The position numbers were made by a program, and so were the translations under genes. A stretch of 64,000 nucleotides of DNA from Patescibacteria group bacterium (GTDB lineage: Bacteria; Patescibacteriota; Minisyncoccia; Phycocordibacterales; Phycocordibacteraceae), in assembly GCA_018971045.1 (NCBI GenBank), contig JAGWVF010000006.1, positions 176 to 64,175 of the forward strand, in the 5' to 3' direction. How positions within the stretch are numbered: position 1 is the stretch's first letter; the number at the start of each line of letters is the position of its first letter. Below the pieces are notes generated by a model. The model searched no databases and was not told the origin of the DNA. It saw only the letters and a program-made list of their open reading frames with translations. Of this stretch, positions 1-22,061 are shown piece by piece.

Positions 1-1101
1 GTTGGCCAGCGGCCGATATACAACCAACTTCTCGACGATATCCGTTGTGGCAAGTTCAACGGTATCCTCACGTGGGCACCGGATCGATTAAGCCGCAACG
101 CAGGCGACCTCGGCGCGGTCGTGGATCTCTTGGATCAGAAGAAGCTGGTGGAGATCCGCACCTATACTCAGACCTTCACCAACAATCCGAACGAGAAGTT
201 CATGCTTATGATCCTCGGCTCGCAGGCGAAGCTCGAGAACGACCAGAAGATTATCAACGTGAAGCGCGGACTACGAGCACGATGTGAGATGGGATACCGC
301 CCCTGCACCGCGCCGACTGGCTACTTGAACGAAAAGGACCGAGACAAGAAGTGTCAGGTGCGCCTCGACCCGAAGCGAGCGATGACCGTGCGGCAGATGT
401 TCGAAAAGATCGGCAACGATGGGTGGAGCGGGCGACAGACCTATCGTTGGCTCCTCAAGATCGGCTTCAAGACACATACCGGGAAGCACCTCTCGCTCGC
501 AAACATCTATATCTGCCTCCGAAACCCCTTCTACTACGGCGAGTTCGAGTATCCGAAAGGGAGCGGCGAGTGGTATCAGGGCAGGCATGAACCACTCATC
601 TCGAAAGGGCTCTTTGAAAAGGTGCAGTGCAACCTGCAGGACCAGTACATTCCGAAGACCGAGAGCAAGGAGTTCGCCTTCACTCGGCTCATCAAATGTG
701 GCTCCTGCGGAAGCGGCATCACGGCCGACGAGAAGTTCAAAAAGCTGAAGGACGGCAGTGTGAACCGTCACGTCTATTATCGATGCACGAGGGCGCGGGA
801 TGTTGCGTGCAACAATGCTGCCGTCAATGAGACGCTGCTCATCGAAGAGCTCTTGAAGCTCCTCGATACTCTCGACCTCGATGAGATTGGTATGCGCGAA
901 AAGATCGAAGAAGAGATCGTTCGGTACAACAAGTTCCGCATGGGCGTGCTCGGTGCGAAGAAGAAGGATAAAGCGACCGCCATAGATATTCGCACTTACG
1001 CAAAGTATCTCCTCAAGGACGGCACGATTACCGAGAAGCGCGAGCTGCTGTCGTGTCTCAAGAGCCAGCTGGTGCTGAAGGATCGGAAGATCGTGCTTTA
1101 A
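1..1101 (+). CDS. large serine recombinase (site-specific recombinase/resolvase family), 5'-truncated by window edge
   Basis: Frame-1 translation from nt 1 reads ...GILTWAPDRLSRNAGDLGAVVDLL..., the resolvase catalytic-domain region. The ORF continues through a recombinase domain to a C-terminal Cys cluster (KCGSCGSG). No start codon in window. Confidence 0.8.
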   Translation, partial: VGQRPIYNQLLDDIRCGKFNGILTWAPDRLSRNAGDLGAVVDLLDQKKLVEIRTYTQTFTNNPNEKFMLMILGSQAKLENDQKIINVKRGLRARCEMGYRPCTAPTGYLNEKDRDKKCQVRLDPKRAMTVRQMFEKIGNDGWSGRQTYRWLLKIGFKTHTGKHLSLANIYICLRNPFYYGEFEYPKGSGEWYQGRHEPLISKGLFEKVQCNLQDQYIPKTESKEFAFTRLIKCGSCGSGITADEKFKKLKDGSVNRHVYYRCTRARDVACNNAAVNETLLIEELLKLLDTLDLDEIGMREKIEEEIVRYNKFRMGVLGAKKKDKATAIDIRTYAKYLLKDGTITEKRELLSCLKSQLVLKDRKIVL

Positions 1102-1117
1102 GGCTAAATTAACGAAA

Positions 1118-1150
1118 ACCGCTCTCACGACTGAGCGGCTTTCATTTTTC
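1118..1150 (+). terminator. rho-independent terminator after recombinase gene
   Basis: Stem CCGCTC...GAGCGG followed by CTTTCATTTTT T-tract. Confidence 0.5.
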
Positions 1151-1190
1151 AATCGTGAGCGAATTTTGCCTACCACGTTCGATTTCTAGT

Positions 1191-1262
1191 CGGGGCAGGT
1201 CTGTAGGAATCGAACCGGCGTGCTCGAACATGGCCCAAAAGGCCGAGGCACCTCGGTCACTT
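1191..1262 (-). other. degenerate tRNA-like fragment
   Basis: Minus strand contains a GGTTCGATTCC T-loop consensus and two short hairpins, but the T-stem and acceptor stem do not pair. Lies 15 nt from an intact tRNA. Confidence 0.3.
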
Positions 1263-1276
1263 GAATTAGCACTAGC

Positions 1277-1352
1277 TGGTGCCCTCGGCAGGAATCGAAC
1301 CTGCATCGTCAGCTCCGCAAGCTGATGTCCTATCCATTGAACGACGAGGGCG
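1277..1352 (-). tRNA. tRNA-Arg (anticodon GCG)
   Basis: Minus-strand cloverleaf: acceptor GCCCTCG/CGAGGGC, D-stem GTTC/GGAC, anticodon stem TCAGC/GCTGA with loop TTGCGGA, T-arm GCAGG-TTCGATT-CCTGC, encoded CCA. Confidence 0.8.
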
Positions 1353-8965: not shown

Positions 8966-9040
8966 GCCCCTATAGCTCAATGGATAGAGCTGCGGACTTC
9001 TAAGCCGTCGATGTTGGTTCGATTCCAGCTAGGGGCACCA
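8966..9040 (+). tRNA. tRNA-Arg (anticodon TCT)
   Basis: Acceptor GCCCCTA/TAGGGGC, D-arm GCTC-AATGGATA-GAGC, anticodon loop CTTCTAA, T-arm GTTGG-TTCGATT-CCAGC, encoded CCA. Confidence 0.8.
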
Positions 9041-9048
9041 AATAACTT

Positions 9049-9723
9049 ATGGCGATTTCTATAAAGAAAGCACGGATCCCTTTTTATCCTAATCTCAAGG
9101 ATAACCTGCACTGTTTTCAGTCTGCGCTGAAAATGGTTTTTGCTGTTTTTGAAAATAAATTTTATTCATATACATATCTTGATCAAATAACCGGATATAA
9201 AAAAAATAATTTGACTTGGGATACGACGGCGCTCTTATTTCTTGCAGAAAACGGCTATACGGTGATCAAAATTAGCACCTTTGATTACCCCGCCTTTGCT
9301 TCCGAAGGGACGAGCTACCTGAAGAAGTTCTGGCGCTCTGACGTGTATACAACACAGGCGAAGTTCTCAAATTTTCAGCGGGAACGACGGATCGTCACTC
9401 GACTTATTAAGGATAAGCGCATACGCCTTAAGATACGCAAGCCGACTCTCGCCCTTGTCTCCGCGTATCTTCAAGAGGGGTGGCTCGCAATAGCTCATAT
9501 TGATGTTTCCATTCTCGATAATACAAAGAATTACAGCCCCCATTCGATAGTCATTACTGACGTGCGGCCAACGCGGGTGTCGTTCCATGATCCGGGGCTT
9601 CCTCCCGAAGAAAATCGATCAGTATCCAGAAAGGCGTTTGATCAAGCACTCCGAATCGGAGAAGTCATTCTCATCAAGAAGCCCGGAGCTCTTAAAAAAC
9701 ATCTCTCGCATCGCGGGACATAA
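9049..9723 (+). CDS. hypothetical protein, possible papain-like/C39-like cysteine peptidase fold
   Basis: 224 aa, AT-rich; conserved-looking Cys (NLHCFQSAL) and His (HSIVITD) spaced as in C39-like/BtrH-N domains. Assignment by pattern only. Confidence 0.45.
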   Translation: MAISIKKARIPFYPNLKDNLHCFQSALKMVFAVFENKFYSYTYLDQITGYKKNNLTWDTTALLFLAENGYTVIKISTFDYPAFASEGTSYLKKFWRSDVYTTQAKFSNFQRERRIVTRLIKDKRIRLKIRKPTLALVSAYLQEGWLAIAHIDVSILDNTKNYSPHSIVITDVRPTRVSFHDPGLPPEENRSVSRKAFDQALRIGEVILIKKPGALKKHLSHRGT

Positions 9724-9760
9724 ACCGGAAAATGTCGAGAAAATCGTGACTGTTAATGGC

Positions 9761-10522
9761 ATGGAAATTACAGCACAATCCAAAAATATACGTGTATTTT
9801 TTGCGGGACGGTGGTCACCGGAACAAGTTTCTTTTTCCAAAATATCTTCCTCACGCATGCTCAATGAGGTTGTGGAAGAAAAAGCAAAACAATCGTGGCT
9901 CTCGCTCTTGGGAGAATCCGAGAAAGAGAAAAGTAAATTGTGGGATAGCACTATCTATCGATTTGAAAATGCGTTTCTTAGAGAAAATGCACTGGAGATT
10001 CAGGCATCTACCATTCCTTTTTCCATCCGACTTGGTTTGAATCAGCACACAAAATTAGTGCATCAACTTGGCGAAGCTTATGCGCCACGCGGCATGTTCA
10101 CCTCTTGTTTAGTGAAGACGAGTGACCATCATCTTCTTTTTATAAAGAAATCAAAACACTATTTCACTCCGAAGAAATACTCATGGGTGGGAGGAGTCCT
10201 TTCAAATAGTGAACAAGAAATTACCAATGGTATCGATTTCTTTAACACTATGAGAAATGAAATACGAGAAGAAGTCGGCAGTAGCGCTATATCATCTCTT
10301 GAACTTCGAATAGGTTATTTGACAGAAAACTGGAACGTCTGTTTTTTATTTGTTGCAGAACTAAATATCAATATGCCGCAACTTTATAGAGTATTTCGAG
10401 AAAACAATGATGGTGAAGCTGCAGATCTCGTTAGTTTTTCTATATCAGACATACAAAATCAGATTCATATTTTTGAACCGAAAGATCAAATAAAATTTGC
10501 ACTTCTTGGCCTTGTTTCGTAG
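9761..10522 (+). CDS. Nudix-like hydrolase (divergent Nudix box)
   Basis: C-terminal GGVLSNSEQE...RNEIREEVG resembles the Nudix box G-x5-E-x7-REUxEExGU with an insertion; ORF track start 9587 overlaps the upstream gene, so ATG at 9761 is preferred. Confidence 0.5.
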   Translation: MEITAQSKNIRVFFAGRWSPEQVSFSKISSSRMLNEVVEEKAKQSWLSLLGESEKEKSKLWDSTIYRFENAFLRENALEIQASTIPFSIRLGLNQHTKLVHQLGEAYAPRGMFTSCLVKTSDHHLLFIKKSKHYFTPKKYSWVGGVLSNSEQEITNGIDFFNTMRNEIREEVGSSAISSLELRIGYLTENWNVCFLFVAELNINMPQLYRVFRENNDGEAADLVSFSISDIQNQIHIFEPKDQIKFALLGLVS

Positions 10523-10547
10523 TCTAATGGGGGCAGAAGTTCCTCAT
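10523..10547 (+). repeat. 25-bp direct repeat copy 1 (TCTAATGGGGGCAGAAGTTCCTCAT)
   Basis: Identical 25-mer recurs at 11431-11455; each copy sits just 3' of a gene and begins a mini-ORF MGAEVPH... Confidence 0.7.
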
Positions 10548-10557
10548 TCCAGCTGAT

Positions 10558-10668
10558 TTACCGTATGACGATGAACGTTTCGATGTCGTGTGCACTCGGG
10601 GCGTGCTGGTGTCGCATGTTGGCAAGAAATACGTGGGGCGGTTCATTCAAGAGCATCGCCGCGAGTAA
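10558..10668 (+). pseudogene. gene fragment resembling C-terminal part of a class I SAM methyltransferase
   Basis: Translation LPYDDERFDVVCTRGVLVSHVGKKYVGRFIQEHRRE, preceded by an in-frame stop; the FDVV...L.HV pattern resembles methyltransferase post-motif regions. Confidence 0.25.
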
Positions 10669-10714
10669 ACGCAGTCATGTGCAGAAAAATTAGTGCATAA
10701 TCATACATATATGT

Positions 10715-11266
10715 ATGTACGAAATTGAACATCGCGCCGTACTGAGCGAAGAAGCCTACCGAGAGCTAGCGGAGCGGCTTGCGCGCGAGGCGGTACTGCT
10801 TGGTTCAGACGACAAGGAGGTATCCTATTATATCTTCCCCGATAAACTCCTTAAGGTCGTGCGGAATGTCTCGAAGGGTACGGCGAAACTCTCCTTGAAG
10901 CTGACCGCACTTGGTGCCGGGTCTTCGTTCCGTGAATTCGAAGTCCTCTTCCCCGAAGAATCCTTCGAGACCATGAAGAATATCTGCGAGAACATCAGCA
11001 CGCCTGACCAGGTGATCAATGGGACACAGAAACGCACTAATTATGAATACCTTGGTGTAGAGATCGCACTCAAGTGGAGTGAAGACTGGGGTTATCATGT
11101 CGAATTCGAGATCATGGTCTCCGACCTCTCCGAGAAGGAGTCCGCAGATGCCCGTATCCGCGAAGCCGCCGCAGCGCTTGCCGTGCCCCTCATGACCGAA
11201 GAAGAGGTGGCTGCCTTCTCCGCGAAAGTAAGAGCGCAGAACAAGTCCTTGGGAACACGCTCGTGA
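10715..11266 (+). CDS. CYTH-domain protein (class IV adenylyl cyclase / triphosphate tunnel metalloenzyme-like)
   Basis: N-terminal MYEIEHR (ExExK-type CYTH signature) and acidic beta-strand motifs HVEFEIMV. Confidence 0.65.
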   Translation: MYEIEHRAVLSEEAYRELAERLAREAVLLGSDDKEVSYYIFPDKLLKVVRNVSKGTAKLSLKLTALGAGSSFREFEVLFPEESFETMKNICENISTPDQVINGTQKRTNYEYLGVEIALKWSEDWGYHVEFEIMVSDLSEKESADARIREAAAALAVPLMTEEEVAAFSAKVRAQNKSLGTRS

Positions 11267-11430
11267 TTGATGTCCTTGAAGCCGATCTATCAGGTACGCG
11301 GTGACTCCGCTAATGAAGAAATTGATAACTGGAAGTCGATAATATCCGTCGTTTATTACTATGTTGCTAGACCAAGTTCTGAGACATCATTAACTAAACC
11401 GCTTTTGATAAGATCCCTTACGCCATTTCC

Positions 11431-11455
11431 TCTAATGGGGGCAGAAGTTCCTCAT
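11431..11455 (+). repeat. 25-bp direct repeat copy 2
   Basis: Same 25-mer as 10523-10547. Confidence 0.7.
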
Positions 11456-11559
11456 CCTCACCCATTATTCAGAGGCGAAAGAGTATCGGTCGCCACCGAG
11501 CTCAAGGATACGATCTGATAAAGGAAATCAAGGCGATTCGGTAGTACAATATCAGTACG

Positions 11560-12585
11560 ATGATTCCTCTCGATCGAAATGAGAGTTACTGGCTACTTGA
11601 TGATGAGCTCCTCGAGGCGGCGCGTGGCATAGGCGCGCGCGAACTCTCGACCTATCCGGATTATGGAGAGTTGAAAAGTGCTTTAGCGAGATATGCGGAT
11701 GTTGCTCCCGAACAAATACTCGTTACTCCCGGCTCTGACGCGGCAATAGAGTATATTGCTCGTGCGTATGCGGGGAGTGGGGGAGACGTGATACTTCCCG
11801 TACCGACATTTTATGGCTACGAATCTATTCTCGATCGCGTCGGATCGAAGATTATCCCGATCCTCTACAAAGAGGAGAATGGTCGTTTCATATTTCCGAT
11901 TACAGAAACAATCAATGCGCTCGCGAAGAGCTCCGCGAAAGTCTTATTTCTCTGCCACCCTAATAATCCGCTCGGGTGCCCGCTCTCACAAGACGACGTC
12001 TCGACTCTCGCGAGCGCACTGCGAGGATCCAACACAATCGTCGTATCAGATGAGGCGTATTTTGAATTTTCTTCTGGCGCATCACTTTTGCCGCATCTCG
12101 CTGAACTGCCGAACCTACTCATTATCCGTACGCTCTCAAAATCGTTCGCTCTCTCGGGTGCTCGCGTTGGGTATATAATCGCCGATCCGGACACTATAAA
12201 AAAGCTAGAGAAACTCATACTGCCGTGGCCGATCGCGCATCCGAGCGCCGCCACGGCACTCGCGCTTCTCGCGCAGGCAGAAAAAGTGAAGAGGCGGCGC
12301 GATAGGGTTATCGCTGAACTCGAGCATTTCAGAGAAGAAATGAAGCAGATTCCCGGTGTTGTCGTGTATCCCTCGGAGACGAATTTTGTTCTGGTACGAG
12401 TTCCAGACGCCGGGCGTACACGCGAGGCGCTTCTCGCGCAAGGTATACGGGTCGCGCTTGGTGAGTCGATGAGCCGTTTTCCCGAAGCAAAGAAGCTTTT
12501 GAGAGATACCTTGCGCATTGCGACGCCCGCACCCGCTGATCGCTCTGCCGTCATAGCCGCTTTCTCGCGCCTATTCACAACATAA
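11560..12585 (+). CDS. class I/II PLP-dependent aminotransferase (histidinol-phosphate aminotransferase-like)
   Basis: 341 aa; LSKSFALSGARVGYII lysine motif typical of HisC-like aminotransferases. Confidence 0.75.
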   Translation: MIPLDRNESYWLLDDELLEAARGIGARELSTYPDYGELKSALARYADVAPEQILVTPGSDAAIEYIARAYAGSGGDVILPVPTFYGYESILDRVGSKIIPILYKEENGRFIFPITETINALAKSSAKVLFLCHPNNPLGCPLSQDDVSTLASALRGSNTIVVSDEAYFEFSSGASLLPHLAELPNLLIIRTLSKSFALSGARVGYIIADPDTIKKLEKLILPWPIAHPSAATALALLAQAEKVKRRRDRVIAELEHFREEMKQIPGVVVYPSETNFVLVRVPDAGRTREALLAQGIRVALGESMSRFPEAKKLLRDTLRIATPAPADRSAVIAAFSRLFTT

Positions 12586-12611
12586 GGTTTATGTGTTAGT
12601 GTTCCCGCATC

Positions 12612-14165
12612 ATGCGTACCAGCCGCTTGCCGGCCCATACCGTGAGGAAGACTGCGGCACGGTCCCGCCCCTCCGCTGTTTCCGCCTCTTTCCTCGCAAA
12701 AGTGCATGTTAACGGAAGCGCCGACTGGCAACGATCGGACAAGAGCCACCTCCTCGCTCTTTTTAAAAAGATGGCGATCGGGATTCCGGCGTATCGGAAA
12801 TTTCTTCGCGAAAACGGGATACGCCGTGAAGCTGTAAAAACGATAGAAGACTTCTCCTCCGTTCCAGCGATAACAAAGCAGAACTATTTGCGGAAGTACT
12901 CTCCAGCCGAGCTTCTATGGAACGGCTCGACCTGTTCCGGACACGTTCTTACCTCGACCTCGGGCTCAACGGGGAAGCCCACCTACTTTGCCCGTTCTCA
13001 CGAGGTCGACGAGCACTCCTCTTTTATTCATGAACTCATTTTCCGTACCAGCTCTCTGAAGAAAGATAAGTCAACGCTCGTGATCGTCTGTTTCGGTATG
13101 GGGGTATGGATCGGCGGGCTTATTACCTATCAGGCGTTCGAGCTCATGGGCCGTCGAGGATACCCGATATCGATCCTCACGCCGGGCATAAATAAAGCCG
13201 AGATTCTGAAGGCGCTGACCGATTTGGCGCCGCAGTATGACCAAGTCATACTCGCGGGGTACCCCCCGTTTCTTAAAGACGTGATCGATGAAGCCCTCGC
13301 CCAGGGCTTTTCTTTTGCCAATCATCGCATGATGCTTCTTTTTGCCGCGGAGGCATTTACCGAAACGTTTCGAGAGTACCTCGCCAAGAAAGTCGGCATT
13401 GAGAATGTCCTTACCGATGCGATTAATATCTACGGAAGCGCCGATATCGGCTCGATGGCGTTTGAAACGCCGCTCTCCATCCTCGCGCGCCGTCTCGCGC
13501 TGAAAGACGAAAAATTATTTGCCGATATTTTCGGTAATACCACGAAGACTCCGACCTTTGCGCAATATGTTCCTGAATTCGTATCGTTTGAGGCGCCCAA
13601 CGGCGAGATCCTCATATCGGGAGATAGCGCTCTCCCGCTCCTTCGCTACTCGATCGGCGATCATGGCGGGGTATACACCTTCCGCGATCTTGTTGAACGA
13701 TACAAGGCACACGGAGTGGATCTGATGAAAGAGGCACAAGCCGCCGGTATCAGGAGACAAGTCTACGAATTGCCGTTCGTGTACGTCTTTGAGCGTATTG
13801 ATCTCGCCACGACTCTCTACGGACTGCAGGTGTATCCAGAAACTATCAAAGAGGTTTTACTCAATAAGCAATACGTCGACACTCTGACCGGCAAGCTCAC
13901 GCTCATTACGAAATACGACGATAATCAGGACCAGTATCTCGAGATCAATATCGAGCAGAAACCGAAGAAAGAGGTAAGCAAGGCGCTCGAGTCGGATCTG
14001 CTCGCGGAGATCGTGAAAGGCCTGCGCGAGAAGAACTCGGAATATCGCGAGCTTTCGAAATTTCTCGGGAAGCGCGCAGAACCGAAGCTCATCTTTTGGC
14101 CGTATGAGGACCCGCTTTATTTCAAACCGGGCACCAAACAGCCGTGGGTGGTGCGTCAGGCGTAA
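12612..14165 (+). CDS. adenylate-forming enzyme, phenylacetate-CoA ligase (PaaK)/F390-synthetase-like
   Basis: TSGSTGKPT AMP-binding motif; N-terminal region LLALFKKMAIGIPAYRKFLRENGI parallels the PaaK N-domain; alternative ATG at 12771. Confidence 0.7.
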   Translation: MRTSRLPAHTVRKTAARSRPSAVSASFLAKVHVNGSADWQRSDKSHLLALFKKMAIGIPAYRKFLRENGIRREAVKTIEDFSSVPAITKQNYLRKYSPAELLWNGSTCSGHVLTSTSGSTGKPTYFARSHEVDEHSSFIHELIFRTSSLKKDKSTLVIVCFGMGVWIGGLITYQAFELMGRRGYPISILTPGINKAEILKALTDLAPQYDQVILAGYPPFLKDVIDEALAQGFSFANHRMMLLFAAEAFTETFREYLAKKVGIENVLTDAINIYGSADIGSMAFETPLSILARRLALKDEKLFADIFGNTTKTPTFAQYVPEFVSFEAPNGEILISGDSALPLLRYSIGDHGGVYTFRDLVERYKAHGVDLMKEAQAAGIRRQVYELPFVYVFERIDLATTLYGLQVYPETIKEVLLNKQYVDTLTGKLTLITKYDDNQDQYLEINIEQKPKKEVSKALESDLLAEIVKGLREKNSEYRELSKFLGKRAEPKLIFWPYEDPLYFKPGTKQPWVVRQA

Positions 14166-14262
14166 AACAATCTTCACTACTTTCTGAATCTCTCTAATTT
14201 GCACGTATTTGAGCATCAAGGCGCCGTGCTTCTTCCCACGCCAGATCAAAAGTCTCCTTCAT
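14142..14262 (+). repeat. ~122-bp direct repeat copy 1 (spans convergent gene ends)
   Basis: ~96% identical to 16247-16368. Contains the last codons of the PaaK-like gene (+) and a 22-codon copy of the C-terminus of TrmB gene 16300-17046 (-), which ends with an in-frame stop after MKETFDLAWEEARRLDAQIRAN. Confidence 0.85.
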
Positions 14263-14438
14263 GTGTCTAACACATGAAATTCTGCTCTTGCATTTTCTGT
14301 AAAATGCATCATAATGGTAAACAGGTTATTGAGTAGTTTAAACAATCGATCTTTTGAAAGGAGACCGGAATATGGATTCTCATCTGAGAGTCGGTTCTAT
14401 CAGATTGCGCCCGCAGAAACAAGTTTATAATCAGTAAA

Positions 14439-16241
14439 ATGAATACAGCATACAGCATCGAAGATTTTCTAGAAGTAAAGTCTGCTGGAGGGGCGAGTTT
14501 TAGTCCTGATGGTACGCGGATTGCGTATCTGAGTAACACTACGGGGACATCCCAAATCTTTCTTTTACCCACTGAAGGAGGTGAATCTGAACAACTTACT
14601 GATTTCCAAGATTATGTCTCTTTCGCGCGATTCTCTCCGACCGAGAATATGCTCATATTTGGAAAGGCGGAAGGCGGGAATGAACAGACGCAGCTCTACC
14701 TGTTAGATATTAAGACTCGACAAATCACCAGCATCACGGCGAAGCCTGACGCGAGACATGATTTTGGCGGATGGTCTCCAGATGGGAAGAGCATCTGCTT
14801 CACCTCGAATGAAAGAAATGGAAAGGACTTCGATGTGTACGTAATGGACATCGCGACGCTTAAAAAACGTTGCGTCTTCGATAGGGGTGGGTGGTGTGTC
14901 GCTGAGGGATTTTCTCCACGGGGTACGTATGTTGTCGTACGAGAGAAGCGCTCAGCCGCGAACACTGACCAATACCTTTGCAATCTTAAGACAGGCGTTG
15001 TTGAACACATTACCCCCCACAAGGGAGACGCGTTTTATGCCGGATCATCATGGCTTCCCGATGAATCTGCCTTTTTTCTCATTCAGGATCAAGAAAGAGA
15101 ATTCGCAGGCCTCGCTCGCTATTCGCTTTCTGAAAGAAAATCTGACTACGTTCTTGCTCCGGATTGGGATGTCGAAGGAGTCGTCATAGACAGAGCTGGT
15201 AAGAATATAGCCGTCATCGTAAATGAAGGCGGGTATCAACGAATGACGATATATGATACCTCTCGATTCGAGGTTCGTTCTTGCCGTCTGTCGGCGGGTA
15301 ATGTCTATCAGGCAAGATTTTCCGAGAGCGGATTGCAAATTGCATTCAGCTTAGGAGACTCGCGCCGGACATCAGATGTTTGGATATTGGACTTAGAAAC
15401 AGGAGACTCGCGGCAGATCACACGCAGTTACCAGGGTGTCCCGCCAGAAGTCATGGTTGAGCCAGAACTCATCCAGTTTAAATCGTTCGATGGACTTCTA
15501 ATCCCGGCCTTCTCCTATAGACCGAAGGGAATAAAACGAGGGATGAGAGTCCCCGTGATTATCAATATTCACGGAGGTCCTGAGGCCCAATACCAGCCGG
15601 TATACCAGCCGGTGATACAGTACTTGGTGCACAGCAGTGGGTACGTAGTGGTTGCGCCGAATGTACGAGGCAGCTCCGGGTATGGGAAATCGTACATGGC
15701 ACTTGATAATGTGGAGAGGCGCCTAGATTCGGTGAAAGATATTGTTGCGTTACGTGATCACATTGTTGGGATATTTGAAGGGGACGCTACAGAAATTGCA
15801 TTATTCGGAGGAAGCTACGGAGGATTCATGGTGCTCGCATGTTTGGCATTCTATCCGAAGCTTTGGACAGCGGGGGTCGATGTTGTGGGCATCGTTAACT
15901 TTGTTACCTTTCTTGAAAACACGGCCGCGTATCGACGAGCCTTACGCGAGGCTGAATACGGCTCACTCGAAAACGATAGGGAGTTTTTGGAAAAAATATC
16001 CCCTATCCACTCGATTGAAAAGATAGAAGCGCCGCTGTTTGTCATCCATGGTGCAAATGATCCGAGAGTTCCGCTCTCCGAAGCAGAACAGGTGGTAGAA
16101 AGACTTAGGGGGGTCGGCAGGCATGTTGAATTGCTCGTCTATCCGGATGAGGGGCACGGAATCACGAAGCTTAAGAATAAGCTCGATGCATATCCAAGAG
16201 TGGTCGAATTCTTAACTGTCAACCTTGGACGTTCAGGATAA
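14439..16241 (+). CDS. S9 family serine peptidase (prolyl oligopeptidase/acylaminoacyl-peptidase type) with N-terminal beta-propeller
   Basis: 600 aa; TolB-like N-terminus, GGSYGG nucleophile elbow, C-terminal HGANDPRVP (catalytic Asp/His region); AT-rich relative to flanks. Confidence 0.85.
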   Translation: MNTAYSIEDFLEVKSAGGASFSPDGTRIAYLSNTTGTSQIFLLPTEGGESEQLTDFQDYVSFARFSPTENMLIFGKAEGGNEQTQLYLLDIKTRQITSITAKPDARHDFGGWSPDGKSICFTSNERNGKDFDVYVMDIATLKKRCVFDRGGWCVAEGFSPRGTYVVVREKRSAANTDQYLCNLKTGVVEHITPHKGDAFYAGSSWLPDESAFFLIQDQEREFAGLARYSLSERKSDYVLAPDWDVEGVVIDRAGKNIAVIVNEGGYQRMTIYDTSRFEVRSCRLSAGNVYQARFSESGLQIAFSLGDSRRTSDVWILDLETGDSRQITRSYQGVPPEVMVEPELIQFKSFDGLLIPAFSYRPKGIKRGMRVPVIINIHGGPEAQYQPVYQPVIQYLVHSSGYVVVAPNVRGSSGYGKSYMALDNVERRLDSVKDIVALRDHIVGIFEGDATEIALFGGSYGGFMVLACLAFYPKLWTAGVDVVGIVNFVTFLENTAAYRRALREAEYGSLENDREFLEKISPIHSIEKIEAPLFVIHGANDPRVPLSEAEQVVERLRGVGRHVELLVYPDEGHGITKLKNKLDAYPRVVEFLTVNLGRSG

Positions 16242-16246
16242 AACGT

Positions 16247-16368
16247 CCGTGGGTGGCGCGTCAGGCGTAAAACAATCTTCACTATATTTCTGAATCTCTC
16301 TAATTTGCACGTATTTGAGCATCAAGGCGCTGTGCTTCTTCCCACGCCAGATCAAAAGTCTCCTTCAT
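16247..16368 (+). repeat. ~122-bp direct repeat copy 2
   Basis: Matches 14142-14262; here the minus-strand reading is the genuine 3' end of the TrmB gene. Confidence 0.85.
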
Positions 16369-17046
16369 TATTTCAGCAAAATATGTATCCTCGATAATAA
16401 CGGCAAACTCCTCACGTCCGGACACGAGGACTATCTTATTGTCATAAATGCGAATATCCGAAGTGAAGTTGTATTGTTTAGCTGGTATGAGGCGAATAAA
16501 GGTTTCTCCCTGCGGCTGCGGCATCACCTTTCCCTTGTAAGGAGAAATAATCTGTACCACCTGTTCTTTCTTGCTATAAGAAATAGTGGGGATAACTGCG
16601 AAGGCCCGCACCGCCTCTCCGGACTTCATCATCGCAAGATCATGTACGGCTGTTTCGACGCCCTCCTTCCCCTCATAGAATTTTACTCTTGGATGAAACA
16701 TAAGTGCTGGAGATAGGGCAGTAAGTTCAGGAATAAGGTTATCAATATCTTGATGAATCTTTGCTTGCTTTTGCTCAATAGCCACAGCTTCTTTTAGAAG
16801 CGTGTCTGGATTAACGGCCTCATATATACTGACGCCTTTAGCATCTTCCGCTTTCTCTATAAGACCCTTGTTAATGAGCGATTCTAGAGCTACATATGTG
16901 GAACTCCTATTAATATCAGCTCTCTTTGAAAGAAGTTGAGCGGACAGCGCGCCAGACTCAATGGCAGTCAAGTAAACAATTGCTTCTCTTTCAGTCAAAC
17001 CAAACCCGATTAGCTGAGTAACGATGGTTTTGTCTGGAGATATCAT
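16300..17046 (-). CDS. TrmB family transcriptional regulator
   Basis: N-terminal HTH FGLTEREAIVYLTAIESGALSAQLLS... plus TrmB C-terminal domain. Confidence 0.75.
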   Translation of the reverse strand: MISPDKTIVTQLIGFGLTEREAIVYLTAIESGALSAQLLSKRADINRSSTYVALESLINKGLIEKAEDAKGVSIYEAVNPDTLLKEAVAIEQKQAKIHQDIDNLIPELTALSPALMFHPRVKFYEGKEGVETAVHDLAMMKSGEAVRAFAVIPTISYSKKEQVVQIISPYKGKVMPQPQGETFIRLIPAKQYNFTSDIRIYDNKIVLVSGREEFAVIIEDTYFAEIMKETFDLAWEEAQRLDAQIRAN

Positions 17047-17816
17047 ATTTTATCCACACGGTAGCGCCTGGCTTCTTGTTGAGCGAGGTCGAACGCAACC
17101 TTCATCACCTCAGCTATTTCCTTGCTTTGTATCGAAACAGCAAAGGCTGGGTTATGCGACATAAAGGCAACCTTATCGTCAAAGACGGCAAAATCAGAAG
17201 GAAATTTGAAACACTCGTCAGGTATCAGAGTGATTTCATCAAAATTCGTAGGAGTCTTTTTAATCATTTCTCGTGCCGCGTAATCATCAGGATGGATACC
17301 CCTCATCTTCAAACCTAGAGCCAGTCTGTCCCGCACGTAAATAGGCAGATAGTCTGGTAAGCTGTTAAAGATATTACTTACGGAGGAGAAAACGCGCATC
17401 ATCTTTTCTTTAGAAGCGAGAGTACTTTCAAACCCTTTTCTCAGACCCGCCGCTCCTTCAAGAACTTCTATTTTTGGTTTGAACCGAGAACTCTTATGTG
17501 CCGAACGAAGAGTAGGGGAGAGAGTCGCGAGATTCTGGAGCAAGAGCGTCGATTGCTCCAACTTCTCTTTTGCTGCAAGTGCCAAACGTTCAGGAGGGGC
17601 AGCCGCATATCGCCTCACGGGTTTCTCGTTCACTATGTTCACAAAACCCCGTTTCATTAGACGATCGAGTACAACATACATTGAGCTACGATTAACGCTT
17701 GTTTGATTCGAAATTTCCTGCACGGTTGCAGTCCCAGCGCTCAAAAGAGCTAAGTATACAGCCGCGTCCTTCTCGGGGAGGTCAAGTGCAGAGAGTCTTT
17801 TGGTGAGGGGTGTCAT
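17043..17816 (-). CDS. TrmB family transcriptional regulator (paralogue)
   Basis: HTH LPEKDAAVYLALLSAGTATVQEIS...; 4-bp overlap with downstream TrmB gene; start chosen at MTPLTKRL. Confidence 0.7.
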   Translation of the reverse strand: MTPLTKRLSALDLPEKDAAVYLALLSAGTATVQEISNQTSVNRSSMYVVLDRLMKRGFVNIVNEKPVRRYAAAPPERLALAAKEKLEQSTLLLQNLATLSPTLRSAHKSSRFKPKIEVLEGAAGLRKGFESTLASKEKMMRVFSSVSNIFNSLPDYLPIYVRDRLALGLKMRGIHPDDYAAREMIKKTPTNFDEITLIPDECFKFPSDFAVFDDKVAFMSHNPAFAVSIQSKEIAEVMKVAFDLAQQEARRYRVDKI

Positions 17817-17929
17817 GGGGTCCCAACAGCATAGAATCCAAATGGTTCGCGTGTTGTCAGATATTAGCAACAAATACCAGCAAGAGCAAATAAACCAGAA
17901 GCCTATGCGTGACGACTTGTGTACACATT

Positions 17930-17956
17930 TTCAACTCCGTTTTGAAGACGTTTCAA
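17930..17956. promoter_or_regulatory. overlapping inverted repeats TTCAA-N7-TTGAA-N5-TTCAA in divergent intergenic region
   Basis: Palindromic half-sites between the TrmB genes and the 18035 operon; plausible operator, not verified. Confidence 0.3.
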
Positions 17957-18034
17957 ATAGGTTGTTTTTCTTTGACAACATATCAAATCAACACAAACTG
18001 ATTCTTGTTATGAATTTACTAAGGCAGGAGAAAT

Positions 18035-18385
18035 ATGAGTAAAGAAGGTACGAACCCAAGATTTTCCTTTAGGAAGGACAGGTTTTTTCGTGACCGCGAA
18101 AGCTACGCTGAATGGTGGGCAATTGTGTGTCTTGGTTGTGCAGAAGAAGTATTACTCTATCAAAAAGACGGACATGGGAAACTATATCGCTGTTATTTAA
18201 ATCGCATTTTTGCTCCTGCAAAATATGCAGATCTCCAATATGACCAAACGATGACGATAAAGAAATTGCCGAATCTAACTTGTCCCCGATGCAACTTGCT
18301 CCTAGGCATACCAATGCTTCATTGGGAGGGAAGGCTTGCTTATCGATTGATAAAAGATCGCTGGGGAAAACGAAGGGAGAAGTAA
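18035..18385 (+). CDS. zinc-ribbon protein, hypothetical
   Basis: 116 aa with CLGC...CPRC cysteine pairs; first gene of tightly packed low-GC operon. Confidence 0.5.
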   Translation: MSKEGTNPRFSFRKDRFFRDRESYAEWWAIVCLGCAEEVLLYQKDGHGKLYRCYLNRIFAPAKYADLQYDQTMTIKKLPNLTCPRCNLLLGIPMLHWEGRLAYRLIKDRWGKRREK

Positions 18386-18389
18386 TTCG

Positions 18390-19109
18390 ATGAGTGGAAA
18401 TTATAAAAATACGGTGCAGATTGCACGGAAAACGCTTATCCCAAAGGAAAGGCGGGTGCAAGTCACTGAAGGGGAATTAAGTAAGTATTTACATGTCACA
18501 CGAAGAGGCGTTGGTCCGATTCATACGCCATACGGTTATTTTTGGCAATACGACTTTCATATCGACGATAAATGGGGAAAGTATTCTGTCCTAGTGCGTG
18601 CCCAAGTGGATAAAGAATACAATCCAATTTTTCTTAACAATGAACTATTACTACGCATAGATTCTGGCTGTGAGACGGGACAGCTGTTTCATGACAATAC
18701 CTGTGAGTGTCGTGAACAATTGCACGAGGCATTAAAGAAGATTAATGAACATGGAGAGGGTATGATTATACACGTACCTTCTCAGGATGGGCGTGGAGGC
18801 GGGTTGGCATTTAAACTAGCAACTCTTCTTCTAGAAAAAGACTTGGGATTGAACACGGTAGAGGCCGCTCGTATTCTTGCTAATAATGAGGAGATTGATC
18901 TCCGGACCTATGGAGGGGTTGTTGGCATTCTGAAATTTTTTAGAGCAAAGCGGAACATATTGCTCATGACAAACAATCCCCACAAAATCTCCACTCTCAA
19001 AGAGAATAGATACAAGATATTGCGTACATCCATTCTCATTCCCCCAACACGCTTTACCAAGAAGCATTTACGAGCAAAAAAGATAGAGCTCGGCCATCTC
19101 CTTCCATGA
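18390..19109 (+). CDS. GTP cyclohydrolase II (RibA)-like
   Basis: RIDSGCETGQLFHDNTCECREQL matches the RibA zinc-binding C-x-C region; DLRTYGG near C-terminus; SD GGGAGAAG upstream. Confidence 0.7.
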   Translation: MSGNYKNTVQIARKTLIPKERRVQVTEGELSKYLHVTRRGVGPIHTPYGYFWQYDFHIDDKWGKYSVLVRAQVDKEYNPIFLNNELLLRIDSGCETGQLFHDNTCECREQLHEALKKINEHGEGMIIHVPSQDGRGGGLAFKLATLLLEKDLGLNTVEAARILANNEEIDLRTYGGVVGILKFFRAKRNILLMTNNPHKISTLKENRYKILRTSILIPPTRFTKKHLRAKKIELGHLLP

Positions 19110-19906
19110 CAGAATGTCTCTCAATCTCACTTCGAGGGTTGTCTGCTTCCGGTAAGGGCACTATTGCGTCCCTGCTTGCAAAAGAGCTCAACATCCAGCA
19201 CGTAGATTGTGGGCAAATATTCAGGGCCATTGCACTGTATGTGCATGAACACCGAGTAAAAGGAATTGCCTCTTTCTTTAAGAAAGCAAAGATTCAGATA
19301 ACAAATCGAGATATTACAGTCGAGGGCAAAACGTATTTTCGTGAACAACTACAAACTGAGAATGTCGGTCGTCTCGCAACTGAATTGAGCCGAAAACACA
19401 GCGACAAGCTTGTATCGTTAATAAATGCTCTTCTCTCCACGATACCTCGAGTGATAGTTGATGGACGAAACGCGGGAATAGATATTCTTCCCAACCCCAA
19501 TTTTTCTTTTTTCCTTCAGACAAAATTGGAATCACGCGTGCAGCGACGATATAATCAAGAACGATCTAATGGAATAAAGGTCAGCGTTATAGATATTCTT
19601 CACAGTCTCTCTCACAGAGATGAGGTTGATAAAGAGCGGGATATCAGACTCGTTGAGCCCCAGCGACATGAGCGCACTGTTGTTACAGATGGGAAGACAC
19701 CACTGCAGTGTGTTAATGAAATCATAACTACAATCAATAAGACGAAATCACAAATATTTCTTTGGGTTGCGGTAGACAAACAAGGAAAATTCTTCACTTA
19801 CGAAGATGGAGCCGTAATTGTAGCGACTAAGAAAAGCAAAATTCCAATAAGGGTACGTGAATGCAAAGATTTCTCTATTATTCAGGTAATACTTAAGCCA
19901 GTATAG
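19106..19906 (+). CDS. cytidylate kinase (Cmk)-like P-loop kinase with C-terminal extension
   Basis: GLSASGKGT P-loop, VIVDGRNAG and RVQRRYNQ motifs of Cmk; 4-bp overlap with upstream gene; ~50 aa longer than typical Cmk. Confidence 0.65.
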   Translation: MTECLSISLRGLSASGKGTIASLLAKELNIQHVDCGQIFRAIALYVHEHRVKGIASFFKKAKIQITNRDITVEGKTYFREQLQTENVGRLATELSRKHSDKLVSLINALLSTIPRVIVDGRNAGIDILPNPNFSFFLQTKLESRVQRRYNQERSNGIKVSVIDILHSLSHRDEVDKERDIRLVEPQRHERTVVTDGKTPLQCVNEIITTINKTKSQIFLWVAVDKQGKFFTYEDGAVIVATKKSKIPIRVRECKDFSIIQVILKPV

Positions 19907-19980
19907 ATATGACCCATGTTCTGTGTAGCACCACATTGGCAGAGCTCATTCGAGCTGGGGCAATATGTTAGAATCGAGGG

Positions 19981-21000
19981 ATGACACCTCTGTCGGCGGA
20001 AGACTTCGGGAAAGGATTTCCATTTCAGAGAGATATTTCAGAACAAATTCGCTTCTTACTGACGGCTGCCGTACGAGCCCCCTCGACGCATAATTGCCAG
20101 CCATGGCGGTTTCGGGTTGAGAATAACCGCCTCCTTGTGTATCGCGATACACGCATCCGTCTCCCACAATCAGATCCGGAGAACCGCTATGCGCACATAA
20201 GTATTGGGTTTCTTCTGCACCATATCGATCTATTGGGGAAATGGCTTTCCATGGCCCCGCAAATTTCCCTTGTGAATGGGGATGAACACGTTGCAGAGAT
20301 TACATTTTCTCCAGCGACGAAGGCAGAGGAAATCCCACCACTTGTTGTAGCGATTTTTAAACGTCGAAATCGTCGCGGTGTGTTTGAGGACAAACCAATT
20401 TCTCAATCAATATTTGATGAGGCAACAAAGATGCAAATGCCATCTTTCATTCCTCCAGAGGTGAAGGTGGTTACCGATAGAGCAGCTCTGGCGAGCATTG
20501 CCGATGCAACTTCAGGCAATATGAAACGAGTCTATAAAAGGAGAGTGTTTCGTCGCGAGATGTCTTCATGGATTACGCCAAATAATTCAACACGCAAGGA
20601 TGGCATCCCAGGGTATTCGCTCAACCAGCCAACATTCATGAGCTGGATACTCCCGACCGTTATCCGATTGGTAAATATGGGGAAGGTATTAGCCAAGCTG
20701 AACAATGAGTCTATCGCTTCAGCGGCCGCGGCCTTTGGTTTTGGGGCTGAGGATTCTCCCTCTGGATGGCTCTCGGTCGGGTTTGCCGCTTCTCACACAG
20801 CATTAACGCTTGTCGCCCATAATATCGACTACTCCGTTTTTGTCGCCTCAATAGAATATGAGGACACTCGCAAGTCAGTTGGTGAGGTCTTTCGTCTCCA
20901 TCAGCCACTCGAGTTCCTCTTTGTTGCAGGGACATTCCCCGATGAAGTTGCGTGGATGACCCCACGAATATCGATCGAAGATAAACTAATACCATCATGA
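19981..21000 (+). CDS. tandem-domain nitroreductase family protein (Acg/SagB-type dehydrogenase-like)
   Basis: STHNCQPWRF hallmark; 339 aa length consistent with two fused nitroreductase-like domains. Confidence 0.75.
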   Translation: MTPLSAEDFGKGFPFQRDISEQIRFLLTAAVRAPSTHNCQPWRFRVENNRLLVYRDTRIRLPQSDPENRYAHISIGFLLHHIDLLGKWLSMAPQISLVNGDEHVAEITFSPATKAEEIPPLVVAIFKRRNRRGVFEDKPISQSIFDEATKMQMPSFIPPEVKVVTDRAALASIADATSGNMKRVYKRRVFRREMSSWITPNNSTRKDGIPGYSLNQPTFMSWILPTVIRLVNMGKVLAKLNNESIASAAAAFGFGAEDSPSGWLSVGFAASHTALTLVAHNIDYSVFVASIEYEDTRKSVGEVFRLHQPLEFLFVAGTFPDEVAWMTPRISIEDKLIPS

Positions 21001-22043: not shown

Positions 22044-22061
22044 GAGCGAAAAATAAACAAA

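Follow-up and report, generated by a model that had tools for sequence, protein, structure and literature searches.

Does the AT-rich block that follows a tRNA-Arg gene in a Paceibacteria-type Patescibacteria genome encode a single functional system? We analysed a stretch of 64,000 nt (hereafter the window) and followed up positions 9041-11559, the stretch between the tRNA gene and hisC. A sequence-only reading of this DNA had proposed that the genes found there form an acquired nucleotide-signalling module. On balance, our evidence favors a different view, in which 9041-11559 is a strain-specific recombination patchwork and not one functional system.

Gene content, composition and the C39-like gene

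All features previously recognized in the region (tRNA-Arg, the C39-like, Nudix and CYTH genes, a methyltransferase fragment and a duplicated 25-mer) were found again. With their neighbours, they are as follows:

8966..9040, + strand: tRNA-Arg(TCT) (ARAGORN; Rfam tRNA, 65 bits; encoded CCA end), the left border of the patchwork
9049..9723, + strand: C39-like cysteine peptidase gene, 224 aa (Pfam, alignment, PDB profile match)
9761..10522, + strand: NUDT22-like two-domain Nudix hydrolase gene, 253 aa (AF2 model, Foldseek, profile A3)
10523..10547, + strand: 25-bp repeat, copy 1 (exact match to copy 2)
10548..10700, + strand: methyltransferase pseudogene remnant (similarity to a gene of relative L019)
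10715..11266, + strand: CYTH / triphosphate-tunnel metalloenzyme gene, 183 aa (Pfam CYTH above cut-off)
11267..11430, no strand: orphan spacer downstream of CYTH, 164 bp, with homology to nothing compared
11431..11455, + strand: 25-bp repeat, copy 2, between CYTH and hisC (exact match to copy 1)
11456..11559, no strand: orphan spacer, 104 bp, of which only the last 19 bp are homologous to what precedes hisC in relatives
11560..12585, + strand: hisC-like class I/II aminotransferase gene, given as context (Pfam Aminotran_1_2, 9e-49; TIGR01141 hisC 238 bits, below the 277 cut-off)

GC content was ~0.61 in the PilM-type operon but only 0.32-0.44 across positions 9000-10500, in agreement with the AT-rich block described earlier downstream of a GC-rich pilus operon. 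No stretch of the window was poorer in GC than the 750 bp starting at 9751 (0.376, compared with a mean of 0.539 and an SD of 0.061), and only 1.1% of the stretches scanned had a GC of 0.40 or less. Further low-GC patches exist elsewhere in the 64,000 nt. The region was 100% identical in five Logan assemblies obtained independently from other samples, three of which spanned both copies of the 25-bp repeat. Therefore, the arrangement is not an assembly artefact.

The C39-like gene is a stand-alone gene that begins 8 nt past the tRNA (ATG at 9049); the close spacing reported earlier was correct, its exact value of 9 nt was not. Its product scored 21.2 bits with Pfam DUF3335, under the cut-off of 25, and many of its homologues carry precomputed matches to PF11814, PF13529 and PF03412. 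A catalytic triad in papain order (C22, H165 and D181), together with N15 and H21, was invariant across the 20 sequences of alignment A2. When the family profile was compared with the PDB, the best match was 3erv, a 'putative C39-like peptidase' (E 2e-4), followed by the peptidase domains of ComA. This protein is a putative cysteine peptidase of clan CA, of the DUF3335/BtrH type, as its C39/BtrH-like Cys/His pattern had led the sequence-only reading to suggest. It shares the invariant Cys-His-Asp triad and the upstream Asn with C39-like/DUF3335/BtrH-type papain-fold proteins (3erv and the ComA and PCAT peptidase domains) but, in contrast to the ComA and PCAT domains, it stands alone, with neither a fused ABC transporter nor one encoded in 9041-14165. 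We also considered a bacteriocin-processing C39 peptidase of the ABC-transporter type, which was rejected on the lack of an exporter fusion or neighbour and of a double-glycine leader peptide.

The position of this gene differs from that of its homologue in relative L023, which lies in another slot of the same neighbourhood, between PaaK-like and S9 peptidase genes; in the window, only a 273-bp gap separates these two genes. A small Gly/Ser-rich ORF precedes the three closest C39-like homologues, and no Gly-rich ORF was found anywhere in the window. The C39-like gene may thus be an orphaned piece of the patchwork, abutting the tRNA without the small glycine-rich ORF of its closest homologues.

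A probably acquired NUDT22-like gene next to a native CYTH gene

The second gene had been read as a divergent Nudix gene, and both fold and profile matches bear this out. Its product does not contain the canonical Nudix box GX5EX7REUXEEXGU. It carries an extended one, G-x5-E-x15-E-x2-EE-x-G, which reads G-VLSNS-E, 15 residues, E-IR-EE-V-G, with a spacer of 15 residues in place of 7 and another residue at the Arg position. Among 54 family members, at least 90% conserve the Nudix-helix glutamates E167, E170 and E171. The window protein had no Pfam or NCBIfam match at all, including none to Pfam NUDIX (PF00293) at E values up to 1, and 8 of the 54 family members matched PF00293 weakly (best E 3e-5). 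Foldseek searches with its AF2 model (pLDDT 93.6) returned 104 PDB matches at E ≤1e-3, the best 50 of which all had the Nudix fold. The top six were all human NUDT22 (E 3e-14 to 1e-12, TMq 0.74-0.83, 272-294 aligned columns), followed by other Nudix structures at TMq 0.41 or lower. Consistent with this, profile A3 matched NUDT22 best among PDB sequences: the Nudix domain aligned with E values of 3.2e-7 and 9.6e-7, compared with 0.012 for the next match. The narrower profile A1 had no match.

The Nudix protein is therefore a bacterial NUDT22-like two-domain hydrolase, belonging to a family of 710 clusters. It has the same two-domain architecture as human NUDT22, a UDP-glucose/UDP-galactose pyrophosphatase (PDB 5lor, 5lou, 5lf9), over its whole length, and in both proteins the Nudix box is atypical and lengthened but retains the helix motif E-x2-(E/D)E; the human enzyme, too, is described as having no conventional Nudix box (PMC5688067). 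Unlike human NUDT22, the window protein comes from a bacterium of the candidate-phyla radiation, is annotated as a 'hypothetical protein' and is ~50 residues shorter; the two are ~14% identical and align in sequence over the Nudix domain only. Human NUDT22 converts UDP-glucose to UMP and glucose-1-phosphate (PMC10101856). By analogy with this remote homologue, at ~14% identity, the substrate is most likely an NDP-sugar, for example a UDP-hexose cleaved to an NMP and a sugar-1-phosphate. Such a substrate is plausible because the gene's neighbours in relatives include a sugar-phosphate enzyme and a sugar-1-phosphate nucleotidyltransferase-type gene: in the independent relatives L008 and L013, it stands between an Aldolase_II and an NTP_transferase gene. 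In relative L010, it lies among NUDIX, MazG and HAD genes. The reaction would feed nucleotide and sugar-phosphate salvage.

With a GC content of 37.8% and a GC3 of 31.9%, the NUDT22-like gene falls 16 points short of the GC of the window (53.8%), and no other gene there has a lower GC. It was therefore probably imported, a reading of horizontal acquisition drawn from composition and patchy distribution only. Homologues in four other genomes were 1-11 GC points under their own loci.

The CYTH gene has a different history. Its product matched Pfam CYTH (PF01928) at 24.6 bits (cut-off 23.2) over profile positions 1-162 of 179, and its AF2 model (pLDDT 94.8) matched PH1012, Pfu-838710 and SaTTM at a TM of ~0.70, with the beta-barrel tunnel fold. 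Thus, the family named by the sequence-only reading was correct, with profile and fold searches recovering CYTH as they had Nudix. We found 102 homologues in Paceibacteria, Kaiserbacteria and Zambryskibacteria, nearly all of the full-length ones being 58-88% identical. In 21 sequences, E3, E5, R7, K34, K47, K62, R107, E116, K120, E130 and E132 were invariant. The acidic and basic tunnel residues common to SaTTM and other archaeal CYTH enzymes (PDB 7ns9, 2dc4, 1yem, 2een) are thus invariant in the window family, which differs from the archaeal enzymes in being unusually conserved within Paceibacteria, in an identity of 18-22% to the solved structures and in its N-terminal motif, E3-x-E5-x-R7, an ExExK motif with Arg for Lys.

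Motif rules separate two activities in this superfamily: class IV cyclases carry HF four residues before ExExK and Ala in place of the second Glu of the strand-8 ExE, whereas triphosphatases have an intact strand-8 ExE and are missing the HF motif (PMC8233210). The window protein starts MYEIEHR, leaving no room for an HFxxxx motif, and keeps both glutamates in its strand-8 E130-F-E132. Under these rules, the protein would most likely be a metal-dependent triphosphatase, acting on PPPi, an NTP, thiamine triphosphate or another substrate, and not an adenylate cyclase. This sequence-based prediction weakens the idea of a role in signalling. The JGI label of class IV adenylate cyclase (CyaB) is not supported, given 18.7 bits with TIGR00318 (cut-off 57.95), the lack of HF and the retained ExE.

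The CYTH gene had been counted as acquired together with its neighbours. Because of its 58-88% identity across Paceibacteria, its host-like GC3 (0.64, compared with 0.63 in the neighbouring PaaK-like gene) and its adjacency to hisC in relatives too, it is native. In these relatives (L014, L017 and L018), the CYTH gene and hisC are divergent, whereas in the window they are co-directional.

The methyltransferase remnant and the 25-bp repeat

The fragment noted earlier after the first 25-mer copy is indeed methyltransferase-like, and what remains is a pseudogene of a thymidylate-synthase-like/SAM-methyltransferase fusion gene. Positions 10555-10662 matched residues 314-349 of a 416-aa protein from L019 (64% identity, E 1e-11), which has Thymidylat_synt and Methyltransf_11 matches, and positions 10662-10697 matched residues 405-416 in another frame. 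The first ~313 codons are therefore missing, and an internal deletion of ~55 codons is accompanied by a frame shift; on its own, the fragment had a weak Methyltransf_11 match. In a relative, an intact gene of this type lies directly upstream of CYTH. The decayed 3' remnant would be the third piece of the patchwork, and repeat copy 1 is located exactly at its 5' truncation point.

The repeat, TCTAATGGGGGCAGAAGTTCCTCAT, occurs exactly twice in the window (10523-10547 and 11431-11455), as had been seen, with no third copy at up to three mismatches. None of 100 shuffled sequences contained a match, and none is expected by chance. Beyond the 25 bp, identity ends abruptly on either side, with no significant similarity in the flanking sequences. 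The 25-mer had been placed just after both genes, which is accurate for the NUDT22-like gene (1 nt past the stop) and loose for CYTH (164 nt past the stop). It is not widespread: it was absent from all 25 loci compared, other than same-strain contigs and L022, and from viral contigs, and the single match to its 20-nt core among JGI metagenomes, a chance one, fell within an unrelated TRAP-transporter gene. No relative carries the 25-mer after CYTH or NUDT22-like genes, and we found none related closely enough to reveal the locus with one copy.

Between the two copies lie precisely the methyltransferase remnant, CYTH and the 164 bp, a segment that is flipped relative to hisC when compared with three relatives. 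Given this flipped orientation, the 25-mer is best read as a junction scar, left when a rearrangement disrupted the methyltransferase gene and repositioned CYTH. The repeat may have arisen by a duplication and a later deletion, or by an insertion into a staggered break. Simple inversions leave no direct repeats, and this counts against the rearrangement scar.

Two other explanations of the repeat have to be weighed against a scar. The region could be a classical tRNA-targeted integrative island, with the 25-mer as an att core or as a terminus of a mobile or cis-mobilisable element that has since decayed. As in tRNA-associated genomic islands, a tRNA gene is immediately followed by DNA of deviating GC that carries accessory genes and pseudogene remains, and the direct repeat is exact, sharply bounded and about as long as att cores usually are. 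We nevertheless consider such an island very improbable. No integrase, transposase or other recombinase was found among the ORFs of 9041-11559 in Pfam and NCBIfam searches, no tRNA-derived k-mer of at least 11 nt recurs downstream in the window, as a copy of the tRNA 3' end or an att repeat would, and the region is only ~1.5-2.5 kb long. Moreover, the repeat encloses the native CYTH segment, which is core genome, and not the AT-rich genes; its absence from the other loci and the collections searched also speaks against an att core. Neither did the 2.5 kb of the region match the plasmid collection, nor were relatives found in the viral and plasmid collections searched.

The other explanation is a functional cis element (a 3' signal, a terminator or an sRNA seed) or a small peptide, MGAEVPH... 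The same sequence does follow two co-directional genes, an ATG opens an ORF in each copy, and there is a modest minus-strand hairpin around copy 2 (z = -2.6). Yet neither copy has a terminator (stem plus U-tract) or a promoter, the folds around the copies differ with context, that of copy 1 being no better than shuffles, Rfam holds no family at the 25-mer, and the position after these genes is not conserved in relatives. Both copies start the same mini-ORF, as stated earlier, which is trivial because their sequence is identical: copy 1 gives 9 codons, copy 2 lies inside an ORF of 82/83 codons, and the peptides diverge past residue 7. The 82-aa ORF over copy 2 and the 164-bp spacer is a singleton cluster in 15 billion proteins. 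A functional role for the 25-mer is thus extremely unlikely. Together, the lack of an integrase, of a terminator or other structure and of conservation, and an AT-rich block that the 25-mer does not bound, leave without support both roles that the sequence-only reading had offered for it, a mobile-element end and a conserved 3' regulatory element.

Gene linkage and the Nudix-CYTH pairing

We compared gene linkage in 4 independent NUDT22-like, 5 C39-like and 10 CYTH loci. Homologues of the three genes were neighbours in none of 15 other distinct loci, and they were never paired in these NUDT22-like, C39-like and CYTH loci, so the three are not a conserved module. PADLOC matched no defence model. 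Recombination would have joined the C39-like gene, the imported NUDT22-like gene, the methyltransferase remnant, the native CYTH gene and two 25-bp copies, and a patchwork of unrelated genes is no single coherent signalling module. The acquired nucleotide-signalling module proposed earlier is thus borne out in part: the Nudix gene does look acquired, CYTH is native and the genes are not a module. Neither outcome that the sequence-only reading had named as refuting it, a lack of family-level matches for Nudix and CYTH or a widespread 25-mer, was observed. The recombination patchwork that we favor would make this region an ordinary genome mosaic with one under-annotated enzyme family, the NUDT22-like one.

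A partial exception to this lack of linkage came from canonical Nudix genes. Within 3 kb of CYTH orthologues, we counted 7 Nudix-box ORFs in 55 kb (6 of 10 loci), compared with 2 in 194 kb elsewhere in the sequence compared. These genes near CYTH belong to at least five distinct lineages, and L027 and L028 have recorded Pfam NUDIX matches. No canonical Nudix-box ORF is present in the 64-kb window, only the NUDT22-like gene adjoining CYTH. This enrichment suggests that the adjacency of Nudix and CYTH in the window may not be purely accidental. Conceivably, the CYTH triphosphatase and a Nudix hydrolase form a functional pair for house-cleaning and salvage of nucleotides or polyphosphate in Paceibacteria, in which the NUDT22-like gene replaces the canonical partner by non-orthologous displacement; the NUDIX and MazG genes beside its L010 homologue would fit such a pair. 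We regard this as unlikely, since no CYTH gene was found within ~6 kb of the NUDT22-like gene in four other contexts, 4 of the 10 CYTH loci are without a nearby Nudix gene, and, in the window, pseudogene debris and the repeat separate a Nudix gene that looks recently imported from CYTH. In addition, the count comes from a small, non-random set of phylogenetically related loci, and a variable region in which accessory hydrolase genes accumulate could explain the enrichment just as well. The stronger claim, that the CYTH triphosphatase of Paceibacteria has an obligatory Nudix partner drawn from any lineage at hand (at least five canonical ones, and a NUDT22-like one here), is quite improbable. 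If true, it would describe a flexible two-enzyme pair for nucleotide or polyphosphate salvage or sanitation in genome-reduced, nucleotide-auxotrophic bacteria, and the 25-bp repeats would mark a cassette-like exchange site.

A mosaic region downstream of tRNA-Arg

The region between the tRNA-Arg and the hisC-like gene (9041-11559), together with the tRNA itself, contains the following features.

8966-9040, + strand: tRNA-Arg(tct), called by ARAGORN and confirmed by Rfam
9049-9723, + strand: C39-like protein, 224 aa; sub-threshold Pfam match to DUF3335 ('Peptidase_C39 like'), 21.2 against a cut-off of 25
9761-10522, + strand: NUDT22-like Nudix protein, 253 aa; fold and broadened-profile match to human NUDT22
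10523-10547 and 11431-11455: two exact copies of the 25-mer TCTAATGGGGGCAGAAGTTCCTCAT
10715-11266, + strand: CYTH protein, 183 aa; Pfam CYTH match above cut-off (24.6 against 23.2)

Upstream of the tRNA lies an operon at 60% GC, with a PilM_2 match in its first gene and the end of its last ORF at 8882. The first ATG past the tRNA is at 9049, 8 nt beyond the encoded CCA end, and from about 9000 to 10500 the GC content falls to 0.32-0.44. GC reaches its minimum for the 64-kb window in the 750 bp that start at 9751, with 0.376 as opposed to an average of 0.539 (SD 0.061), and several further low-GC patches are found elsewhere in the window. An Rfam scan of the region found no RNA family besides the tRNA, and none at the 25-mer. 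The DNA comes from a Patescibacteria MAG whose locus tags begin with KGM48_. The sequence-only reading had described this region correctly, including the tRNA-Arg, the drop in GC and an exact 25-mer in two copies, and five Logan assemblies built from other runs carry the region at 100% identity. Three of these five cover both copies of the 25-mer, and the arrangement is therefore real.

The same reading had assigned the three genes to C39-like, Nudix and CYTH families and had proposed that they form an acquired nucleotide-signalling or nucleotide-depletion module. The family assignments were borne out by a papain-type triad, a match to the NUDT22 fold and profile, and the CYTH match above the Pfam cut-off, respectively. 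The module as a unit was not supported. No C39-like or CYTH gene was present in four independent contexts of NUDT22-like genes (L006, L008, L010, and L013), no NUDT22-like or CYTH gene in five contexts of C39-like genes (L023, L024, L026, L029, and L030), and no NUDT22-like or C39-like gene in ten contexts of CYTH genes. Since the families never occur together in these contexts, the trio is unique to this strain. A defence system was rejected as well, as none of the proteins matched a PADLOC model, and so was a phage or plasmid origin, as neither IMG/VR nor the GenBank phages contained relatives of the AT-rich genes and PLSDB had no match to the 2.5-kb region. What looked like a tidy nucleotide-signalling island next to a tRNA is instead a mosaic of a native gene (CYTH), a probably imported gene (NUDT22-like), a displaced gene (C39-like), and a methyltransferase pseudogene. 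The chief value of the analysis is thus corrective; its most useful outcome is the placement of a bacterial family as NUDT22-like, followed by the correction of an 'adenylate cyclase' label carried by CYTH proteins.

Placement of the Nudix gene in a NUDT22-like family

The Nudix protein of the window has no Pfam or NCBIfam match and no direct match among PDB sequences, and a narrow profile of its family found nothing in the PDB either. Its AlphaFold model (pLDDT 93.6, pTM 0.90) gave human NUDT22 as the best six PDB structure matches (E 3e-14 to 1e-12, TMq 0.74-0.83, 272-294 aligned columns), with ordinary Nudix proteins at a TMq of 0.41 or less. Among the PDB sequence searches made with this family, only that with a broadened, 54-sequence profile succeeded; its top match was NUDT22 (E 3e-7), in an alignment that runs through the extended Nudix box. 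This family box reads WVGGVLSKxE, 15 residues, and ExxEExG, that is, a Nudix box with a loop 8 residues longer and without the conserved Arg, and Pfam NUDIX matched weakly in 8 of the 54 family members. Human NUDT22, which converts UDP-glucose to UMP and glucose-1-phosphate (PMC10101856), is itself said to have no conventional Nudix box (PMC5688067). The proteins of the family are about 250 aa long; a word-indexed search returned 16 members, and an exhaustive profile search returned 710 clusters (50% identity) at E values up to 1e-3 and 339 at up to 1e-10. These results assign to the NUDT22-like Nudix hydrolases an unannotated family, so far labelled 'hypothetical' and without a Pfam or NCBIfam model.

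This placement predicts hydrolysis of NDP-sugars, which would supply pyrimidine and sugar-phosphate salvage. De novo nucleotide synthesis is generally reported to be missing from candidate-phyla bacteria, and the predicted salvage is relevant to them for this reason. In two independent genomes (L008 5247-7546 and L013 5072-7368), the gene belongs to a compact cluster in the order Aldolase_II, NUDT22-like, and NTP_transferase, with overlaps or short gaps between the genes; this grouping suggests a sugar-phosphate or NDP-sugar pathway. A third locus (L010) has the order NUDIX, MazG, NUDT22-like, and HAD, and in a fourth (L006) the surrounding genes are unrelated. In the window, the GC content of the gene is 16 points below that of the whole stretch, whereas its homologues are just 1-11 points below their own loci. 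This larger gap points to a low-GC donor and a recent transfer, and the gene was probably imported.

The CYTH gene and its surroundings in relatives

The CYTH gene has 102 homologues, found in MAGs of Paceibacteria, Kaiserbacteria, and Zambryskibacteria, and nearly all of the full-length ones are 58-88% identical. Residues E3, E5, R7, K34, K47, K62, R107, E116, K120, E130, and E132 are invariant, and the structural model (pLDDT 94.8) resembles archaeal CYTH proteins and the Sulfolobus triphosphatase SaTTM (TM about 0.70). Published rules ask two things of a class IV adenylate cyclase, the motif HFxxxxExExK and a strand-8 ExE whose second Glu has become Ala (PMC8233210). The window protein starts with MYEIEHR and keeps E130-x-E132, and its score against the cyclase model TIGR00318 (cyaB) is 18.7, with a cut-off of 58. 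By the published rules, its N-terminus and intact ExE predict a triphosphatase, not a cyclase, and the Paceibacteria CYTH proteins, widely labelled 'class IV adenylate cyclase', should likewise be better read as putative triphosphatases.

Its base composition is host-like (GC3 0.64, against 0.63 for the PaaK-like gene), and the CYTH gene is native. None of eight GTDB loci bearing a CYTH orthologue contains a tRNA. In three relatives (L014, L017, and L018), hisC-like and PaaK-like genes adjoin the CYTH gene on the opposite strand, with divergent starts 44-135 bp apart, whereas in the window hisC is on the same strand as the CYTH gene, which lies upstream of it. The adjacency of hisC and CYTH is therefore old, and the orientation has changed. 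About 50 bp ahead of the CYTH start are conserved at the DNA level (window 10662-10714, L016 2240-2288, L019 2686-2736) and are kept in L016 though no methyltransferase gene is present there; this stretch may be a CYTH promoter or leader. Two relatives carry a second, different CYTH gene near the conserved one (L017 6406-7029 and L027 12201-12806).

A pattern search found 7 Nudix-box ORFs in the 55 kb within 3 kb of CYTH orthologues, at 6 of 10 loci (L014, L018, L019, L021, L027, and L028), compared with 2 in 194 kb of other compared sequence. Those of L027 and L028 are backed by recorded Pfam NUDIX matches. These canonical Nudix genes belong to at least five distinct lineages, none related to any gene of the window. 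Such an enrichment could mean that CYTH and Nudix enzymes cooperate, or else that the CYTH locus is a site where accessory hydrolase genes accumulate. The sample consists of few loci that are not phylogenetically independent, and we therefore regard a functional pairing as unlikely. The recurrent Nudix neighbours of Paceibacteria CYTH genes are worth a comparative study.

The methyltransferase remnant, the 25-mer and the C39-like gene

In one relative (L019), CYTH is immediately preceded, on its own strand, by a gene whose 416-aa product is a fusion of a thymidylate-synthase-like domain and Methyltransf_11. Window positions 10555-10662 correspond to residues 314-349 of this product (64% identity, E 1e-11) and 10662-10697 to its final 12 residues, in another frame. 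The methyltransferase-like fragment that had been noticed after the first 25-mer copy is therefore present, but as a decayed remnant of such a fusion gene. It has lost its first ~313 codons, being cut exactly at repeat copy 1, and has an internal deletion of ~55 codons; the missing 5' part was not found elsewhere in the window.

Both copies of the 25-mer are exact, and their identity stops abruptly at both ends; 100 shuffles gave zero matches with 3 mismatches permitted. Copy 1 may belong to the methyltransferase reading frame: it continues in frame (WGQKFLI) into the remnant, although the Pfam alignment begins only past the repeat, at DLPY. The 82-aa ORF over copy 2 forms a cluster of its own in a set of 15 billion proteins. 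The roles considered for the repeat were not supported. It is not a generic terminator, as neither a terminator-like nor a promoter-like site was found at it and no relative's locus contains it. A conserved 3' regulatory element is very unlikely, as no fold was both better than shuffles and common to the two copies, and as the repeat is absent after CYTH or NUDT22-like genes in every relative. Nor could a mobile-element end be demonstrated: the region holds no recombinase gene, no second copy of the tRNA 3' end lies downstream in the window, and the 20-nt core of the 25-mer has no match in viral contigs. A widespread element was also rejected, as the core gave one match in JGI metagenome contigs, due to chance. 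This sole match (L022 2217-2236) falls in a gene for a TRAP-type solute-binding protein, with the peptide KWGQKFLY, from an organism of high GC content and is coincidental.

The 908 bp from start to start of the two copies contain exactly the remnant, the CYTH gene, and 164 orphan bp. Neither this spacer (11267-11430) nor the one that follows copy 2 (11456-11559) showed significant similarity to the methyltransferase gene, the AT-rich genes or any compared locus; an apparent alignment of the latter to the methyltransferase gene was no better than shuffles and was rejected. Copy 1 is the truncation point of the pseudogene, and copy 2 sits where homology to the hisC-CYTH intergenic region of relatives breaks, only the last 19 bp before hisC being conserved. 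We therefore read the repeat as a scar of rearrangement junctions: a rearrangement would have re-set the unit of remnant, CYTH gene, and 164 bp, leaving the 25-mer behind. Candidate origins of the direct duplication are a tandem duplication trimmed by deletion, a fragment caught in a staggered break, and a short-homology crossover.

The C39-like protein has 21 homologues in a database search, many with precomputed PF11814, PF13529, or PF03412 matches. Their alignment has invariant N15, H21, C22, H165, D181, P182, and G183, which amount to a papain-type triad, and the nearest solved structures are 3erv ('putative C39-like peptidase') and ComA peptidase domains. The NCBI version of the gene is 170 aa long (KGM48_03070); the 224-aa form is right because the shorter one would drop the invariant H21 and C22. 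The 224-aa start, 8 nt past the tRNA CCA end, fits the homologues and makes co-transcription with the tRNA-Arg possible. C39-like genes had a GC content 4-10 points below that of their own loci in each of four genomes, so that at least some of the AT-richness is a property of the family itself.

A related locus (L023), with flanking proteins 70-80% identical to those of the window, has the order PaaK-like, a small Gly-rich ORF, C39-like (50% identity), S9 peptidase, nitroreductase-like, and ThiF. In the window, just a 273-bp AT-rich gap separates the PaaK-like gene (12612-14165) from the S9 peptidase gene (14439-16241), and the C39-like gene lies beside the tRNA, ~3 kb upstream of the PaaK-like gene. 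The C39-like gene thus uses different slots of one neighbourhood, and that of the window is displaced. A small Gly/Ser-rich ORF (for example, MNNNRIHEKPWSSSSFPMSAQGGGGQGGGSSGGG...GRGR) precedes each of the three closest homologues (L023 ~700-910, L029 ~1345-1470, L030 ~130-330), and its N-terminal motif PWSSSSFP is common to L023 and L030; gene callers chose an overlapping Ala/Val-rich frame instead. Its product may serve the C39-like peptidase as substrate or partner. The window contains no such ORF, and its C39-like gene has lost this predecessor.

Downstream, the run at 12612-23633 encodes a PaaK-like adenylating enzyme, an S9 peptidase, a nitroreductase-like protein (TM1586_NiRdase), a ThiF-like E1, and a 7TM histidine kinase, and L023 is syntenic with it. 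At 16300-19906 the run is broken by genes that L023 lacks, namely two TrmB-type regulators, a 116-aa ORF, GTP cyclohydrolase II, and cytidylate kinase. The run may be a peptide-modification cluster. At the other end of the window (1-1351, compared with L001 1-1186), the match to a same-strain Logan contig (L001) begins only at 1271, next to tRNA-Arg(gcg) (1277-1351), and the sequence to the left differs; this position is either a second tRNA-adjacent variation point or a contig junction.
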